From Escherichia coli (GTDB taxonomy: Bacteria; Pseudomonadota; Gammaproteobacteria; Enterobacterales; Enterobacteriaceae): 7,586 bases of DNA. This document shows, piece after piece, positions 2,356-7,586 of this stretch. The stretch lies in assembly GCF_003334815.1 (NCBI RefSeq), contig NZ_QOWO01000067.1; one strand, 5' to 3'. How positions within the stretch are numbered: the first letter of the stretch is position 1; each line of letters begins with the position of its first letter. Below the pieces are notes generated by a model that had not been told where the DNA came from, ran no database searches, and saw nothing but the letters and a program-made list of their open reading frames with translations. Position numbers and translations under genes: made by a program.

Positions 2356-3000
2356 TTACTGTTTGTTATTTTCAATCAGATGATTGATTTCTTCGATCAG
2401 GGCAATAACTTCCTTACCTCCTGCCGAATAGCGCCCATGAACAGACTCAGTGATTCCCATCCCAGTCTCAATGACATCCTCAAATTCTGCACGAGCAGAA
2501 ATGCGGCTCTTCATCAGCTTCAGATGTTTGAACGATGGCAGGATTGCATCAAGCTTAGGGAATTTCTTCTTGTTAGGATTAACTTTACAGAGATACAGGT
2601 GAGCAGTTATATCGGTCCCCATGATAGAGCTGATTTCGTCCAGTACTCCATCAAAATGCATCAAACCAATACGTTCAGTCAGGGAGTCTTTTGAAGGGAC
2701 AATAACGCAGTCTGCAAAGGCAATCGCAGTACGGGTAAGATCTGAGTCAAATCCCCCACAGTCAATAAGTAACGTCTTATCGCTGTTCTTGTAGGGAGTC
2801 ATAATTTCGATTAACTCATCCACTGTTTTGGGTACTTTCACGGAAATTTCTTTTCCTTCAGGTCTCAGCCCCAGAATGATAGAAAGCCCGGTATGAGTAT
2901 CCAGATCAACTGTATCAGACTTCATTTCACCAACAATGTTTACGGATGAAGTTGTCTTACCCACACCACCTTTGGGATGCGTATTAGCAATAACAGGCAT
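2356..3000 (-). CDS. parA: Small ParA-family (ParF-like, type Ib) deviant Walker-A partition ATPase
   Basis: Deviant Walker A KGGVGKTT near the N-terminus, LLIDCGG and a VIVP Walker-B-like hydrophobic strand. Start placed at ATG 3000..2998 (M23 of track ORF 2356..3066), with GGAG 7 nt upstream, giving 214 aa, the size class of type Ib ParA/ParF proteins that lack an N-terminal HTH. Confidence 0.8.
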   Translation of the reverse strand: MPVIANTHPKGGVGKTTSSVNIVGEMKSDTVDLDTHTGLSIILGLRPEGKEISVKVPKTVDELIEIMTPYKNSDKTLLIDCGGFDSDLTRTAIAFADCVIVPSKDSLTERIGLMHFDGVLDEISSIMGTDITAHLYLCKVNPNKKKFPKLDAILPSFKHLKLMKSRISARAEFEDVIETGMGITESVHGRYSAGGKEVIALIEEINHLIENNKQ

Positions 3001-3179
3001 AGTGTATCTCCAGAATCCACATGTAATACCCATAAAGACCCCATAAGACACCTTTCGGATATCCAAGAGGTACTCAATAGATGTTTTTTTACTCTATACC
3101 GGTCCTGCATGTCAACAGAATATGAAATACCGATAATATATCCATGAGATATCCGAAAGGGATTTAAAAAAGTCAGAGC
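3001..3179. promoter_or_regulatory. Promoter/operator region upstream of the ParA-like gene
   Basis: Non-coding gap between the recombinase stop (3180) and the ParA-like start (3000). Contains the palindrome GGATATCC (3057..3064) and GATATCC (3148..3154), related to GGATAC/GATACC motifs on the other side of the operon. Confidence 0.4.
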
Positions 3180-3959
3180 TTATGGAATTCTTTTGAGCAT
3201 AGACACCGCATCGGACTCAGGCATCGAAAACTGCACCCGGTGCCGTGCAGCCACATCCAGTGCAAACACCTTCGTGTAGACCTCCGTTGAGCTGATGGAC
3301 TTATGCCCCATCAGGCTCTGCAGGACCTTCAGCGGTATACCGGCATACAGCATATGCATCGCATAGGAATGGCGGAACGTATGTGGCGTGACCGGGACAG
3401 AGAACGTCACACCGTCAGCGGCAGCGGCGGCAACCGCCTCCCCAATCCAGGTCCTGACCGTTCTGTCCGTCACTTCCCATATCCGCGCTTTCTCTGTCCT
3501 GCCTGTTCGTTTATTACGCCGTTCCATGGGGATTTTCAGTGTGGCCACCATCGTCTGCAGCTGGCTGACGTACCAGGCGTCGGAGAGCGGAACCAGCCGG
3601 TGAGTCTGCTGACCGGCGGGCATTCTTCCTGCCGTCCTGGCGGCTTTTTCCGTCCGTTGTTTCAGGGTCGCAAGCTGCACAAACGGATACGGAGGCGTGA
3701 GCGAAAAATCCCCCCGCGTCAGCGCCAGTGCTTCATTAATGCGCGCACCGGTGTTCCACAGTGTGGCCAGCAGCATCTTGCGGCGCAGATCCGGGACGTA
3801 ATGGAGCAGGGCGCTCACTTCAGGGGCCAGCAGGTATTTGGGCAGTTCATCATGAACCATCGACATCTGGCGGAGTGCCAGCGCTGCCGGATAATCGATG
3901 GCAACAGGAAGCTGAGCGGCATCCCGGGCATGGTGGATCGGTGCCGGCAGGTGCTGCAT
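3180..3959 (-). CDS. Tyrosine site-specific recombinase (plasmid resolvase/integrase family, ResD-like)
   Basis: The C-terminal region carries the tyrosine-recombinase box II signature HTFRHSYAMHML...LMGHKSISSTEVYTKV (His-x-x-Arg, then His, then the catalytic Tyr), and an ARINEAL-type box I arginine sits earlier. Start placed at ATG 3959..3957 (M52 of track ORF 3180..4112), 1 nt after the stop of the upstream ORF, giving 259 aa. Overall it resembles plasmid multimer-resolution recombinases of F-like/I-like plasmids, as recalled from memory, not searched. Confidence 0.85.
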   Translation of the reverse strand: MQHLPAPIHHARDAAQLPVAIDYPAALALRQMSMVHDELPKYLLAPEVSALLHYVPDLRRKMLLATLWNTGARINEALALTRGDFSLTPPYPFVQLATLKQRTEKAARTAGRMPAGQQTHRLVPLSDAWYVSQLQTMVATLKIPMERRNKRTGRTEKARIWEVTDRTVRTWIGEAVAAAAADGVTFSVPVTPHTFRHSYAMHMLYAGIPLKVLQSLMGHKSISSTEVYTKVFALDVAARHRVQFSMPESDAVSMLKRIP

Positions 3960-3960
3960 A

Positions 3961-4374
3961 TCAGTGTTCACTCCACGGGGAAACGTCGGGCAGGTTTTCC
4001 ACAACCCTGTATTTTCCCGGATAACGGAGCTGGTTACCGCCACGCGTCCGGACGGTGACAACAAAACCCCCGCCCTGGTTGTTTTCGGGGAGCAGGCGAT
4101 CGCACTGCTCACTCAGCATGTGGATCACAAACGGCGCATCGCTGCCGTCTTCAAATATCAGTTCCAGCGCATCGCGGCCATCCAGCGTTCCCTTACTGAT
4201 GATGACGTACTCAGCCCCCCGCATCTCCCTGAGTAAATGTTTTGCCGCATCCGGGACAAGCAGCCTGGCTTCGCCGGCATTCCAGCTGAGGTAGACATAT
4301 CCGGCCTGCGCCTGTACAGACTGCCAGTAATCCGTTCTGGCGACAGCCTGACCTTCATTCTCAATAAAAAACAT
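3961..4374 (-). CDS. Hypothetical 137-aa protein, first gene of the recombinase operon
   Basis: Track ORF 3961..4413. I start it at ATG 4374..4372 (MFFIENEGQAV...) because of a strong AAGGAG 8 nt upstream. The stop TGA at 3963..3961 is separated by 1 nt from the recombinase ATG (TGATATG). No recognisable catalytic motif or membrane segments; family not recognised. Confidence 0.6.
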   Translation of the reverse strand: MFFIENEGQAVARTDYWQSVQAQAGYVYLSWNAGEARLLVPDAAKHLLREMRGAEYVIISKGTLDGRDALELIFEDGSDAPFVIHMLSEQCDRLLPENNQGGGFVVTVRTRGGNQLRYPGKYRVVENLPDVSPWSEH

Positions 4375-4410
4375 GGGTGACTCCTTTTTTCTTTTCCGGG
4401 CAGGGACGGT

Positions 4411-4495
4411 CATGCGATAACGTCATCCATCATCACTGCCCTTACCGTCACTCCGTCTGATAACATCATGCCGTTATCATCATCACCATGATAAC
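4411..4495. repeat. GATAAC/CATG repeat cluster, candidate recombination site or operator for the adjacent recombinase operon
   Basis: GATAAC at 4416..4421, 4459..4464 and 4490..4495, inverted GTTATC at 4473..4478, and CATCATCAC twice (about 4429..4436 and 4479..4486). Three GATAAC copies abut CATG. Lies 40 to 120 bp upstream of the operon start at 4374. Confidence 0.35.
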
Positions 4496-4811
4496 AAGCA
4501 TCCATATAACCACGCCGTTAAATTACCGGAGAGCCGTTTCCGTCAGATCCGACTTTTCGGAATATCACAACTTTCCGGAAGTGTACCACGCTGAGGAAAT
4601 AATCATATCGCTGTTTTCCGCCCCTGCGCGGCGCATCACAGGTCAGGGAGATGACACAACATATAGTGTCATCAGCAGCTGAATCCGGCACCACATGTTG
4701 TGCTGACGGGAGGTGGCGTTGTGTGGGGGGAGAAGAAGATCCGTAACCGCCGGAAACCGGATCTGCGCGGCGGGAAACGGGCAAGTGATATGGTAATTGA
4801 GCAATACACAC

Positions 4812-4867
4812 AAAATCATATCAGATATGATTTTCATCATTGATGATAGAACCATATCTGATATTAT
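4812..4867. promoter_or_regulatory. Palindromic operator array and candidate sigma70 promoter for the + strand operon starting at 4943
   Basis: Perfect 23-bp palindrome AAAATCATATC-A-GATATGATTTT (4812..4834); 13-bp palindrome TCATCA-T-TGATGA (4834..4846); 11-bp palindrome ATATC-T-GATAT (4854..4864). Candidate -35 TTGATG (4840..4845) and -10 TATTAT (4862..4867) with a 16-bp spacer overlap the palindromes. Confidence 0.45.
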
Positions 4868-4942
4868 AAGAAATCAGGAGCACACAAATCATACAGGATA
4901 TTATTTTTACCTGTCAGAACATTATCAGATGGAGCGTGCAGG

Positions 4943-5197
4943 ATGGATGAAGAAAGGGTGTTTTCACTCAGCTATGAGCAACTAACCCGAATAGCGGAAA
5001 AAAATATCCGTGAATGTGGGCTGGACAACCAGAGCGCCAGGTGTATCAGTGAACTGAAGGCCTCAGCTCTGCTGTGGTTGTGGTATGAACTGGCCATTCA
5101 TGGTGCGCCACAGAACAATCACGCACAGGCCCGGGAACGCATCGATACCGATTATCAGCGCCTCAAAAAACTCATCTGGTCGGAGGGTGACAGTTAA
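4943..5197 (+). CDS. Hypothetical 84-aa protein, first gene of a two-gene operon
   Basis: ATG at 4943 with GGAG about 10 nt upstream. The stop TAA (5195..5197) overlaps the next ATG (TAATG). No transmembrane segment; family not recognised. The + strand is preferred over the long antisense ORF (5063..5803, -), whose translation is an Arg/Pro/Ala-rich artefact typical of the reverse strand of a GC-rich gene. Confidence 0.55.
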   Translation: MDEERVFSLSYEQLTRIAEKNIRECGLDNQSARCISELKASALLWLWYELAIHGAPQNNHAQARERIDTDYQRLKKLIWSEGDS

Positions 5198-5787
5198 TGA
5201 CTCAGAGCCGCCGACCGTCGCCACTGCAGCGGAGAGTGCTGATTGTGCTGGCTGCGCTTGATGAAAAACGGCCGGGCCCCGTGCTGACGCGGGACCTGGA
5301 ACGGGTGCTGGAGCGAAGCGGGGAAGCCCCGGTCTACGGGCCAAACCTGCGCGCCTCCTGCCGTCGTCTGGAGGATGCCGGCTGGCTGCGTACCCTGCGC
5401 GCCCCGAACCTGCAGCTGGCAGTGGAGCTGACGGACGCCGGCCGGGCCGTGGCACAGCCTCTGCTGCTGGCAGAACAGGACCGCCTCCGGGCAGAACAGC
5501 GTGCGGCAGAAGTCGTCGTACTGCCGCTGGTCCCGGCAGCAGGTCTGCCCGCAGACGGCACTTCTGCCACTGATCTGGCGGTGGAGCTGAACGGCATAAC
5601 GTATCAGGCCTGCCGCGGGGATTTTGTGGTGCGTCTCGACGGCAGCACCTGTCTGCAGTTATGGAATAAAGAAGGCAGGGTGGTACGCCGGGAGGGCGAT
5701 CCGCTGGAAGTGGCGCAGTGGCTGCAGGCCTGTCATGACGCAGGAATAGAGGTTCGCGTACAGATAAATGAAAGTGCCGCTCCGTAA
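5197..5787 (+). CDS. Hypothetical 196-aa protein, possible winged-helix DNA-binding N-terminal domain
   Basis: ATG at 5197 overlaps the upstream stop. The N-terminal ~90 aa (LQRRVLIVLAALDEKRPGPVLTRDLERVLERSG...) has the hydrophobic/charged periodicity of a winged-helix domain (inference). The C-terminal ~100 aa is unrecognised. Markedly GC-rich compared with the rest of the window. Confidence 0.55.
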   Translation: MTQSRRPSPLQRRVLIVLAALDEKRPGPVLTRDLERVLERSGEAPVYGPNLRASCRRLEDAGWLRTLRAPNLQLAVELTDAGRAVAQPLLLAEQDRLRAEQRAAEVVVLPLVPAAGLPADGTSATDLAVELNGITYQACRGDFVVRLDGSTCLQLWNKEGRVVRREGDPLEVAQWLQACHDAGIEVRVQINESAAP

Positions 5788-5806: not shown

Positions 5807-6154
5807 TTACACATCATCCCATGGTGGCAGCCGGTTAACTTTCCTGCGCCACCAGTGGAAAGAGGCCATGCACAGTCCGAACAAAAAACCACCCGTGATA
5901 CTTATAATAATGGCCTCACCTGCCACCATTCCTGACGGCCCCCAGTAGGTAAACCACATTACACATCCCCAGGAAATGCCCCATAAGCCCCCCGTCAGCA
6001 CCGTGACCTGCCAGAACGGCATAAAGGGTAATGGCGGAAGCCGGATACCCAGCCGCCATAGAATACGCAGAAGAGGAGGGGCATAATTGCTCCGCCACAT
6101 CTTTTTGCTGTCCATCAGGGCAATGGCCCGGGCTTTTTTCTGCTCAAAGGTCAC
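5807..6154 (-). CDS. Small inner-membrane protein (two predicted transmembrane helices), function unknown
   Basis: 115-aa ORF with a GTG start at 6154..6152, preceded by GGAGG at 7-nt spacing. Two hydrophobic segments (VTVLTGGLWGISWGCVMWFTYW and MVAGEAIIISITGGFLFGLCMASFHWW) and a positively charged C-terminus. Convergent with the 196-aa gene (19-bp gap between stops). Confidence 0.55.
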   Translation of the reverse strand: MTFEQKKARAIALMDSKKMWRSNYAPPLLRILWRLGIRLPPLPFMPFWQVTVLTGGLWGISWGCVMWFTYWGPSGMVAGEAIIISITGGFLFGLCMASFHWWRRKVNRLPPWDDV

Positions 6155-6272: not shown

Positions 6273-6620
6273 ATGAAACTGGATATATCTGTAAAGTATT
6301 TACTGAAAAGCCTGATACCAAGCCTCATTATTCTTACAGTTTTTTATCTGGGATGGAAAGATAACCAGGAAAATGCAAGAATGTTTTATGCGTTCATCGG
6401 ATGCATTATCAATGCCATTACTTTTCCTTTTTCAATGAGGATAATACAGAAAATGGTAATAAAGTTTACAGGGAAAGAACTCTGGCAAAAAGACTTCTTT
6501 ACAAATCCAGTTGGCGGAAGCTTAACTGCAATATTTGAATTATTCTGTTTCGTTATATCAGTTCCTGTGGTTGCCATTTACTTAATTTTTATATTCTGCA
6601 AAGCCCTTTCAGGAAAATGA
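6273..6620 (+). CDS. Pore-forming colicin immunity protein (colicin Ia/Ib-type, three transmembrane helices)
   Basis: 115-aa protein with three hydrophobic helices (LIPSLIILTVFYLGW; MFYAFIGCIINAITFPFSM; LTAIFELFCFVISVPVVAIYLIFIFC). Convergent with the colicin gene, 17 bp from its stop, which is the arrangement known for immunity genes of pore-forming colicins. Its length matches my recollection of the Ib-type immunity protein, unverified. Confidence 0.8.
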   Translation: MKLDISVKYLLKSLIPSLIILTVFYLGWKDNQENARMFYAFIGCIINAITFPFSMRIIQKMVIKFTGKELWQKDFFTNPVGGSLTAIFELFCFVISVPVVAIYLIFIFCKALSGK

Positions 6621-6637
6621 AAGGGCATCATTATGTG

Positions 6638-7586
6638 TCAGATACCAATAAGTTTATTGACCTGCTCAATAAACTTATCATTAACAAGCGCACTCACAGC
6701 CGCCATAATAATTGCAAAACCCAGAATACCTACAGGGGTTCCCAGCATGACGGAAAACGTCCATGCTGTAACTGCTGAAGCAGCTCTTCCTGCTGCCAGT
6801 GATTCAAGTTTTACAAAAAATGGACGCCAGTTGTCCGTTTTTACAGCCTTTTGTAACTCCACAGCAACATCATAACGATCAATAACTTTTCCGGTAAAAC
6901 CAAATGCCTTACTGAACAGCTTAAAATTCTCCGCCATATGGACCTGATTAATAGCTTCCAGGGCTTTAGAAATGGCCATGCGATCTTGTATGCTATATTT
7001 CTTGTTCAGATTATTACGGAATTTATCAAAAGCGTTCAGTGCATCATCCACACTCTTAATCTGTTTCCCTTGAGATACAGAAGCCAGCTCCTTAGCAAGT
7101 TCGGATGCTTGTTTACCGAACTCATCATATATCGTTCTGTAGAAATCAGAGGTGAGTTTTATGGCATCCTTTACCATATTTATTTCATCCCTTTTTCTTT
7201 TCTCTTCCGCTATTTTCTGATTGATGTCAGCAAGCTGGCTACGGATATTCTCTTTTTCCTTCAACAGGGCATTAAGAGCGTCATTTGCATGCTTTTGTTC
7301 ATTTGTTCTGGCACTGACGTTATTTCTCGCCGAATTTATCGCAGATTCAGCAGAGGTGATTTTATTTCTGGCATCAAGCAATCGTTGCCGTAACTTATCC
7401 CATTCAGCAACTTCAGCATTATAAATTTTCTTGTCACCTTCCACATCCTCTGTAACCACCGGATTCCGGTCATTCAGAATATTGCGTTTATAGTCCAGAC
7501 CGGAATGGGTCAGAAGATAATTCAGGTTTGCACGGTTATCGATGACTGCGCTGGTTGTGATTTTTATCGTACCGGCAAATCTCGGA
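6638..7586 (-). CDS. Pore-forming colicin of the Ia/Ib family, 3' portion (channel-forming domain); 5' end lies beyond the window
   Basis: The frame is open from the window edge (first full codon 7585..7583) to TGA at 6640..6638. The track's GTG start at 7459 is an internal valine: manual translation upstream of it continues without stops (...TTSAVIDNRANLNYLLTHSGLDYKRNILNDRNPVVTEDVEGDKK...). The C-terminus (...DNWRPFFVKLESLAAGRAASAVTAWTFSVMLGTPVGILGFAIIMAAVSALVNDKFIEQVNKLIGI) has the hydrophobic helical hairpin of a colicin channel domain and matches my memory of colicin I-type sequence. Confidence 0.85.
   Translation of the reverse strand, partial: PRFAGTIKITTSAVIDNRANLNYLLTHSGLDYKRNILNDRNPVVTEDVEGDKKIYNAEVAEWDKLRQRLLDARNKITSAESAINSARNNVSARTNEQKHANDALNALLKEKENIRSQLADINQKIAEEKRKRDEINMVKDAIKLTSDFYRTIYDEFGKQASELAKELASVSQGKQIKSVDDALNAFDKFRNNLNKKYSIQDRMAISKALEAINQVHMAENFKLFSKAFGFTGKVIDRYDVAVELQKAVKTDNWRPFFVKLESLAAGRAASAVTAWTFSVMLGTPVGILGFAIIMAAVSALVNDKFIEQVNKLIGI

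Follow-up and report, generated by a model that had tools for sequence, protein, structure and literature searches.

Does the small gene that stands immediately ahead of a plasmid resolvase gene encode a partner of the resolvase, or a protein that shares its operon and acts on its own? The question was raised by a 7,586-nt stretch of Escherichia coli DNA (contig NZ_QOWO01000067.1 of assembly GCF_003334815.1; referred to here as the window), in which yedA, a gene for a 137-amino-acid (aa) protein, directly precedes resD, a gene for a tyrosine recombinase. An earlier note on the window had placed the recombinase ATG 1 nt after the stop codon of a 137-aa open reading frame (ORF) with a strong Shine-Dalgarno sequence, which was confirmed (TGAtATG and AAGGAG, with both genes on the minus strand), and had proposed from this spacing a coupled expression and a functional link. 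In the analysis presented here, resD is very probably the last, coupled gene of an operon with swappable upstream cargo, and YedA is a self-contained cargo rather than a dedicated partner of the recombinase.

Identity of the locus and its plasmid setting

Several conjugative plasmids of the IncI-gamma/K1 type (I complex), from E. coli and E. fergusonii, contained the 1.8 kb around the yedA-resD pair with 100% identity. The deposited IncI record LC567095 labels the two genes yedA and resD, and entries named YedA are also present in UniProt. The predicted ResD shared 236 of 251 residues (94%) with ResD (“D protein”) of the F plasmid (E = 9e-176). It contained a tyrosine recombinase domain, with the catalytic residues R73, H193, R196 (H193-x-x-R196), H219, and Y228 legible in the translation, and it matched XerD/XerC-type profiles in NCBIfam and integrase phrog_216 in PHROGs. 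A noncoding block of ~240 bp upstream of yedA aligned with F at ~45.9 to 46.2 kb and with every other resD locus aligned, which places an rfsF region next to the operon. The gene order in the window plasmid was colicin Ia/Ib and its immunity gene, a DUF6404 gene, two divergent hypothetical genes, the 137-aa gene, the recombinase gene, a gene for a ParA-type ATPase, ParM/StbB-type genes, and impCAB.

Because of the 100% match to IncI-gamma/K1 plasmids, the names in LC567095, the 94% identity of ResD, and the shared ~240-bp block, positions 3180 to 4764 (minus strand) can be assigned with high confidence to an IncI-complex conjugative plasmid, as its rfsF-yedA-resD locus. The multimer resolution system present here is the known one of rfsF and resD, in the version that has yedA in IncI plasmids, and is a variant of the ccdAB-resD operon of F with another passenger. 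ResD would resolve plasmid multimers at rfsF, a role ascribed to it because of its identity to F ResD and the conserved site region upstream. The recombinase, its site, and its placement in an operon are textbook plasmid biology, and more than 1,000 sequenced plasmids carry the locus; the arrangement first singled out is therefore largely ordinary. In the searched literature, yedA was found as a landmark name only, and a functional study was not found.

Exchangeable genes between rfsF and resD

Plasmid records in PLSDB were searched with the body of resD (3180 to 3911; megablast, ≥80% coverage) and with YedA (tblastn), and the types of cargo were counted with queries spanning the junction (reaching 150 nt to either side of the resD start). 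The resD body was found in 4,582 records and YedA in 1,157. The YedA-type resD locus accounted for 1,083 records, the ccdB/resD junction for 2,454, and junctions of resD with a 229-aa gene and a 273-aa gene for 538 and 105, respectively; the four counted types together made up ~90% of the resD-bearing records. Roughly one in four of the close resD homologues was preceded by YedA. The proposal of a conserved functional partner fails, because the supposed partner is absent from most close homologues of the recombinase gene, which have ccdB or other unrelated genes in its place; the earlier note had itself given such an absence as refuting the proposal.

Reading of the segment between rfsF and resD in different plasmids revealed at least five unrelated cargo sets. 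In F and IncF plasmids, the slot between the rfsF block and the resD body is taken by ccdA-ccdB; in other IncI-gamma and in IncFIB plasmids, by a 116-aa gene together with the 273-aa or the 229-aa gene; in a Citrobacter plasmid, by genes for three small acidic proteins (89, 128, and 177 aa); and in a Cronobacter plasmid, by YedA with two genes (120 and then 242 aa) before it and one (280 aa) after it. In megablast comparisons, the match to IncF plasmids ended at approximately window position 3911, and the sequence common to the ResD variants started at LPVAIDYPAALALRQM, with the first 16 to 25 residues varying by cargo type. As read from these alignments, the leader and the first 16 to 25 resD codons come with the cargo and differ from one cargo to the next. 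The genes between rfsF and resD would thus form an exchangeable cargo position, with resD always last, tightly coupled, and never free-standing in this plasmid lineage. Because resD is always the last gene, tightly coupled behind exchangeable cargo, the dosage of the resolvase in these resistance and virulence plasmids would be tied to the upstream passenger, which bears on the stability phenotypes of ccd or yedA deletions.

Integron-like capture of cargo at rfsF was considered and rejected: the variable segment (from ~4520 to ~3912, inside resD) is not bounded by the candidate sites described below. Since its ends miss both of these (4650 to 4673 and 4737 to 4764), homologous recombination within the conserved flanks is the better explanation of cargo exchange.

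YedA would be a dedicated accessory factor or regulator of ResD if it served as an architectural or directionality factor at rfsF or as an autoregulator of the operon. The tight coupling and the joint presence of the pair in ~1,100 IncI-type plasmid records are in keeping with such a role, and the GATAAC-type repeats of the yedA leader could act as an operator. However, a ~94%-identical ResD works in F without YedA, and ~75% of the plasmids with resD are without YedA. Together with the loci and protein properties of YedA given below, these observations make an accessory or regulatory role very improbable.

The slot also invites a reading of YedA as a stability or addiction determinant that replaces CcdAB and causes division delay or postsegregational killing during dimer resolution. 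YedA lies in exactly the position of ccdAB in F, another occupant of the slot has a weak match to a HEPN-type toxin domain, and, for F as well as for elements of the Tn3 family, toxin-antitoxin and resolvase genes have been proposed to be expressed in a coordinated way (PMC7157771). Nevertheless, a single gene lies between the leader and resD, no cognate partner is conserved across the YedA family, and neither the two-gene make-up of a type II toxin-antitoxin system nor a toxin or antitoxin match in Pfam, NCBIfam, or PADLOC was found. Furthermore, in a transposon screen of one I-complex plasmid, whose carriage of yedA was unchecked, only the replicon and parAB were essential for maintenance (PMC10286972). 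An addiction role for YedA is improbable on this evidence.

The other cargo proteins had no significant match in Pfam besides a weak match of the 273-aa protein to HEPN_RiboL-PSP (E = 4e-4). The 116-aa protein belonged to phrog_36524, the 229- and 242-aa proteins had a hydrophobic, possibly membrane-spanning segment (phrog_33426), and the 280-aa protein had a GNAT-like motif without a significant match. The loci with alternative cargo were L012 (3360 to 4590), L013 (3275 to 4358), L005 (3866 to 6344), and L053 (3743 to 4995).

Coupling of resD to the preceding gene

The distance from the stop codon of the last cargo gene to the resD start was +1 nt behind YedA (TGAtATG), 0 nt behind ccdB (TAAATG), −1 nt behind the 273-aa gene (TGATG), −4 nt behind the 229-aa gene (ATGA), −11 nt behind the Cronobacter 280-aa gene (an overlap), and +4 nt behind the Citrobacter 177-aa gene (a gap). 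All ResD loci read, whatever their upstream gene, had a junction between −11 and +4 nt, and the tight junction is therefore not a matter of chance. Coupling is a property of resD and not of YedA, because the last cargo gene always ends beside the resD ATG.

The 1-nt gap between yedA and resD leaves no room for a promoter or terminator, which argues for cotranscription. Cotranscription was detected by reverse transcription-PCR in the homologous operon of pSLT, where the level of rsdB depends on the upstream promoter (PMC5065971), and, in F, ccd and the resolvase gene have been described as one operon (PMC7157771, citing Lane 1986 and de Feyter 1989). The geometry of the junction appears to be of the termination-reinitiation type. 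Independent initiation at resD is probably weak, because its GGAG, within the 3′ end of yedA, lies 11 nt before the ATG, farther than usual. ResD would accordingly be made from the transcript of the cargo, as the distal gene of a polycistronic operon, and probably in large part by ribosomes that end at the cargo stop codon and then reinitiate.

The coupled expression suggested in the earlier note is thus supported by the 1-nt gap, by the type of junction, and by the findings for pSLT. The accompanying statement that plasmid resolvases are usually single genes does not apply to the ResD family: resD of F lies behind ccdAB (PMC7157771), and rsdB of pSLT lies in a six-gene operon (PMC5065971).

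YedA homologues outside IncI plasmids

Loci with a YedA homologue were collected from one genome per species and examined up to 6 kb on each side where the contig allowed. The 34 species-level loci came from Gamma-, Beta-, Alpha-, and Deltaproteobacteria, with single hits in metagenome-assembled genomes (MAGs) labeled as Chloroflexi and other phyla. By an iterated recombinase profile, a tyrosine recombinase was found in two of these loci, both of them IncI-type loci of E. coli, and restriction to the 27 loci whose sequence continued for at least 1 kb downstream gave the same result. Pfam Phage_integrase was found in 2 of 143 neighboring ORFs (within 2.3 kb, 29 loci), one being the Cronobacter ResD itself and the other an oppositely oriented integrase 1.7 kb away on a Pantoea/Erwinia-type plasmid. 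The co-occurrence expected of a partner was therefore missing in 32 of the 34 loci, which argues against YedA as an accessory factor of ResD. YedA was usually embedded within operons, overlapping its neighbors, and this midoperon position in other elements is unlike that of an autoregulator.

Two observations concern the pair in other database entries. A 96%-identical, IncI-type yedA-resD pair was present in a MAG labeled “Lachnospiraceae” (locus L014, contig CAAFVW010000115.1), with resD split into two ORFs; this contig is probably a misbinned enterobacterial plasmid fragment with a frameshift. YedA-ResD fusion proteins labeled “XerD” also occur in databases (AFDB A0A6D1P2I1, 398 aa; P0019, 236 aa). 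They can arise through single-base frameshifts or sequencing errors, because the reading frame of resD continues without a stop codon for 51 codons upstream from its ATG, into yedA.

The neighbors of YedA were varied. In six loci from different genera, YedA came shortly after a ParB-like gene, with the two abutting in five of the loci; the ParB-like gene followed a PAPS-reductase-like (DUF3440) gene and an SNF2-like helicase gene, in prophage-like regions, and one of the six had a phage-portal-like gene further downstream (by reading of the translation, with no profile match). All-against-all clustering of neighbors yielded this set, in six loci, and no other conserved partner. The plasmid-borne homologues had neighbors encoding single-stranded-DNA-binding protein (SSB), ParB_N, KilA-N, ProQ, and a 6,136-aa helicase protein with LPD domains. 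The surroundings of YedA on a conjugative plasmid of Thioalkalivibrio comprised nucleases, orphan methylases (for adenine and for cytosine), and a very large helicase gene, and on Pantoea/Erwinia-type plasmids YedA adjoined an IncFII replicon. One 300-aa protein combined a YedA domain with a C-terminal Antirestrict domain (PF03230) and was followed by a second Antirestrict gene (both in L049, region of 339 to 2730), as a single case on a 3-kb contig. Six representatives (P0124, P0180, P0229, P0243, P0183, and P0264) carried an additional domain of ~85 aa, N- or C-terminal to the YedA domain, with the motif YH.ELP.EL..W..Y..D.GHSI...VVD and no match in Pfam or PHROGs. This domain is a possible functional partner domain of YedA; profiles built from the extra domains of fused members gave no match in the examined YedA loci.

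From the company that YedA keeps in prophage-like regions and on plasmids, a part in the establishment of elements or in genetic conflict, rather than in DNA resolution, is put forward tentatively. More specifically, YedA could be an establishment or counterdefense protein, of an anti-restriction-like or related kind, for which the resD operon does no more than provide expression; being small, acidic, and free-standing, it would suit such a role, as would the ParB-like and PAPS-reductase-like pairs with the SNF2-like helicase, the methylases, and the Antirestrict fusion. On the cargo reading as a whole, YedA is a selectively maintained mobile-element protein that acts independently of recombination. 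Several distant homologues had an establishment or leading-region location. The IncI copy, by contrast, is in the maintenance region, between rfsF and the partition genes; no likeness in sequence or fold to a known anti-defense protein was found in Pfam, PHROGs, PADLOC, PDB, or BFVD; and the neighborhoods were heterogeneous, with the fusion known from one short contig. A counterdefense function is accordingly a possibility to be held with reserve.

The other occupants of the slot fit a conflict theme loosely, CcdAB being a toxin-antitoxin system and the 273-aa protein having its weak HEPN_RiboL-PSP match. A wider proposal would make the rfsF-resD operon a general docking position of enterobacterial plasmids for conflict or addiction modules coexpressed with the dimer resolvase, with YedA founding a new, widespread establishment or counterdefense family; its known and candidate occupants would include CcdAB, the HEPN-like protein, YedA, and others. 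This proposal is doubtful.

The YedA protein family

The 137-aa protein had been described as without recognizable motifs, and indeed no match was found in Pfam, NCBIfam, PHROGs, PADLOC, or PDB sequences by profile search. A word-indexed search recovered 141 homologues down to ~50% identity, and 1,146 clusters at 50% identity matched the YedA profile in an exhaustive search. A longer in-frame start (ATG at 4413, 150 aa) was rejected, since homologues from many genera begin at the position of the 137-aa start. The ratio of nonsynonymous to synonymous substitution rates (dN/dS) was 0.06 to 0.11, with 0.11 between the IncI YedA and its Cronobacter orthologue; judged by these ratios, YedA is under purifying selection. 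The homologues, the purifying selection, and the confident structure model described next mark yedA as a real gene.

The AlphaFold2 model of YedA was confident (predicted local distance difference test score [pLDDT] of 92.3, predicted template modeling score [pTM] of 0.87), with nine strands and two helices. Foldseek searches with it returned uncharacterized family members only in AFDB50 and nothing at an E value of ≤0.001 in BFVD, and no solved fold in PDB resembled it. The homology and structure checks proposed earlier for this protein thus produced a large family and a confident model, and neither a known family nor a known fold. YedA is a protein of 15.4 kDa and mildly acidic (pI 5.0; family median, ~5.5), with invariant acidic or basic positions at E71, E75, D92, R93, and R123 (D76 is also listed as invariant) and with the family motifs SWNAGAARLLVP, ELLFEDGSDxPF, and GKYRVV. 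It is not basic and has no helix-turn-helix or other DNA-binding fold, unlike what would be expected of an accessory or directionality factor. A modeled fusion of YedA to ResD through a (GGGGS)6 linker had a pTM of 0.41, from an unpaired alignment that was shallow for the ResD part (ResD pLDDT, 40 to 65). As a large, conserved mobile-element family without a Pfam family and with a confident model unlike any solved fold, YedA is a reasonable low-cost candidate for functional screening, for instance in establishment, anti-defense, or toxicity.

A 126-aa allele of YedA (L015, 1828 to 2205; PLSDB hit H63) has an in-frame deletion of 33 nt that removes ELIFEDGSDAP, the most conserved motif of the family, and has the resD junction and resD intact. 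It is carried by two protein clusters (48 and 44 member sequences), and ~28 PLSDB records fall into the band of 80 to 90% identity that includes it.

This allele bears on two of the alternatives. Its persistence beside an intact resD, without the invariant motif, is a further argument against YedA as an accessory factor of ResD. It also agrees with a reading in which the yedA frame of IncI plasmids is kept mainly as a translated leader that brings ribosomes to resD, the protein being dispensable there: the deletion spares the frame and the junction, and the coupling geometry is kept across unrelated cargos. A frame kept for its translation is nevertheless hard to reconcile with the strong purifying selection on the protein between IncI plasmids and Cronobacter, or with the full-length YedA kept at 95 to 99% identity in ~1,100 PLSDB records, and this reading is highly improbable. 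Of the three roles listed in the earlier note, that of an unrelated determinant sharing the operon fits best; those of an accessory resolution factor and of a regulator are disfavored by the pattern of co-occurrence and the properties of the protein.

Several points weigh against the reading of YedA as self-contained cargo of a coupled operon. In IncI-type plasmids, yedA and resD almost always occur together, as expected from shared descent and also from a partnership. No experiment on YedA was found in the searched literature, and YedA might, formally, still modulate ResD in IncI plasmids. Translational coupling is argued from spacing, and a Shine-Dalgarno-like motif lies ahead of every resD start, so that independent initiation is possible. 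No confident promoter of the operon was found, the only candidates being a weak site in the yedA leader (TTATCA-18-CATGAT, 4494 to 4465) and a better one ~500 nt upstream. Finally, the role in establishment or conflict draws on heterogeneous neighborhoods, one Antirestrict fusion, and analogy with other slot occupants.

Sites and signals of the locus

The features of the locus are collected in Table 1. F contains two rfsF sites at the start of the region of nucleotides 45922 to 52516 (PMC4398462). In IncI1 plasmids, rfsF is the switch point between the “Col” and “Delta” gene sets (PMC8004404), and other plasmid mosaics have been ascribed to rfsF with ResD or RsdB (PMC9412624). Two inverted repeats in the rfsF block of the window are candidate sites. 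The centre of the first, CACTATATGTTGTG, was unchanged in all aligned plasmids, and this repeat may be a core-type site of the recombinase. The second is a candidate for the rfsF crossover point, because the boundary of the IncI-versus-IncF mosaic falls within it.

Table 1. Features of the rfsF-yedA-resD locus, in window coordinates
Feature	Position	Strand	Basis
resD, tyrosine recombinase (plasmid multimer resolvase ResD), 259 aa; ATG 3959..3957, stop 3182..3180	3180..3959	-	Translation, homology, LC567095 annotation
First ~16 resD codons, particular to the YedA cassette and unlike resD behind other cargo	3912..3959	-	Megablast, N-terminus comparison
Coupling junction TGAtATG (yedA stop, 1 nt [base 3960], resD start)	3957..3963	-	Direct reading
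yedA, 137-aa acidic, mostly beta protein of an uncharacterized mobile-element family; ATG 4374..4372, TGA 3963..3961	3961..4374	-	ORF, homology, model
yedA Shine-Dalgarno AAGGAG, 6 nt ahead of ATG	4381..4386	-	Direct reading
Cassette-specific yedA leader	4375..4520	-	Four-cargo-type alignment, repeat search, promoter scan
Noncoding block of ~240 bp, rfsF/oriV1-proximal region, presumed cis site of ResD	4521..4764	-	Alignments
Perfect 8-8-8 inverted repeat GATGACAC-N8-GTGTCATC	4650..4673		Repeat search, inside conserved block
Inverted repeat AGATCCG/CGGATCT, 14-bp spacer	4737..4764		Direct reading, alignments
Three 22-bp palindromes (AAATCATATCAGATATGATTTT and variants), spacing 36-37 nt	4813..4917 (palindromes 4813-4907)		Repeat search

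The yedA leader, which was not common to ccdAB or other cargo types, contained the GATAAC-type repeats in direct and inverted orientation. The best sigma-70-like site directed toward yedA-resD (CTGACA-18-TATGAT, 4917 to 4888) lies among the three upstream palindromes, and sigma-70-like sites on both strands (4888 to 4928) overlap these palindromes, which stand between the operon and a divergent pair of hypothetical genes. The palindrome array may be a distal promoter or operator shared with the divergent genes.

Neighboring genes

The two divergent genes (84 and 196 aa; 4943 to 5787, plus strand) overlap via ATGA. The 196-aa gene has a G+C content of 69%, compared to ~40 to 45% in the plasmid flanks, and only a weak PHROG match, of unknown function; the antisense 246-aa ORF over it is an artifact of the high G+C content. 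The DUF6404 gene (5807 to 6154) flanks the colicin and immunity pair. The colicin Ia/Ib-type immunity gene (115 aa, plus strand; region of 6273 to 7459) is convergent with the colicin gene, of which a 273-aa ORF in the window (6638 to 7459, minus strand) is the pore-forming C-terminal part; an identical plasmid has a colicin gene of 1,881 bp at this place. On the other side of the operon, a perfect TTGACA lies ~75 nt 3′ of the resD stop codon (in the stretch of 3067 to 3180), ahead of the ParA-type gene yefA (2356 to 3066, minus strand), and no terminator-like hairpin was found between resD and yefA on the minus strand.

Comparison with known systems

The locus has a superficial likeness to an integron (intI, attI, and gene cassettes), in that a tyrosine recombinase gene lies by its site with variable, unrelated genes beside it. 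It is not a member of that class: the variable segment is bounded by ~4521 and the first resD codons, and there are no attC-like elements. As in Xer/cer and Cre/loxP, multimers of the plasmid would be resolved by a tyrosine recombinase that acts on a site in cis. Xer systems use the host accessory proteins ArgR and PepA, and Cre is a stand-alone gene. Unlike the present locus, these systems have no exchangeable upstream passenger, and YedA is without the properties of such accessory proteins.

The toxin-antitoxin pairs beside resolvase genes in Tn3-family elements are similar in that passengers adjoin a site-specific resolvase and its res site and share expression signals (PMC7157771). The Tn3-family resolvases are mostly serine recombinases (TnpR) with recognizable toxin-antitoxin passengers, whereas here the recombinase is of the tyrosine type and the passenger has no known family. 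The ccdAB-PSLT029-PSLT030-rsdB-PSLT032 operon of pSLT/pSDL2, with crs/rfsF, likewise has a ResD-family resolvase gene in a distal position in a polycistronic operon with short or overlapping junctions (PMC5065971, PMC9412624). It differs in having a toxin-antitoxin pair and two more genes ahead of rsdB and in being regulated by the toxin-antitoxin complex; no such regulator is evident in the yedA version. Compared to rfsF-ccdA-ccdB-resD of F, the window locus has a single yedA in place of the CcdA/CcdB toxin-antitoxin system, a different leader, different first ~16 resD codons, and an IncI-complex instead of an IncF setting. The two share the 94%-identical recombinase and the same rfsF-region block (PMC4398462, PMC7157771), and in F, too, resD comes last, directly after the TAA of ccdB, with plasmid maintenance genes as neighbors.

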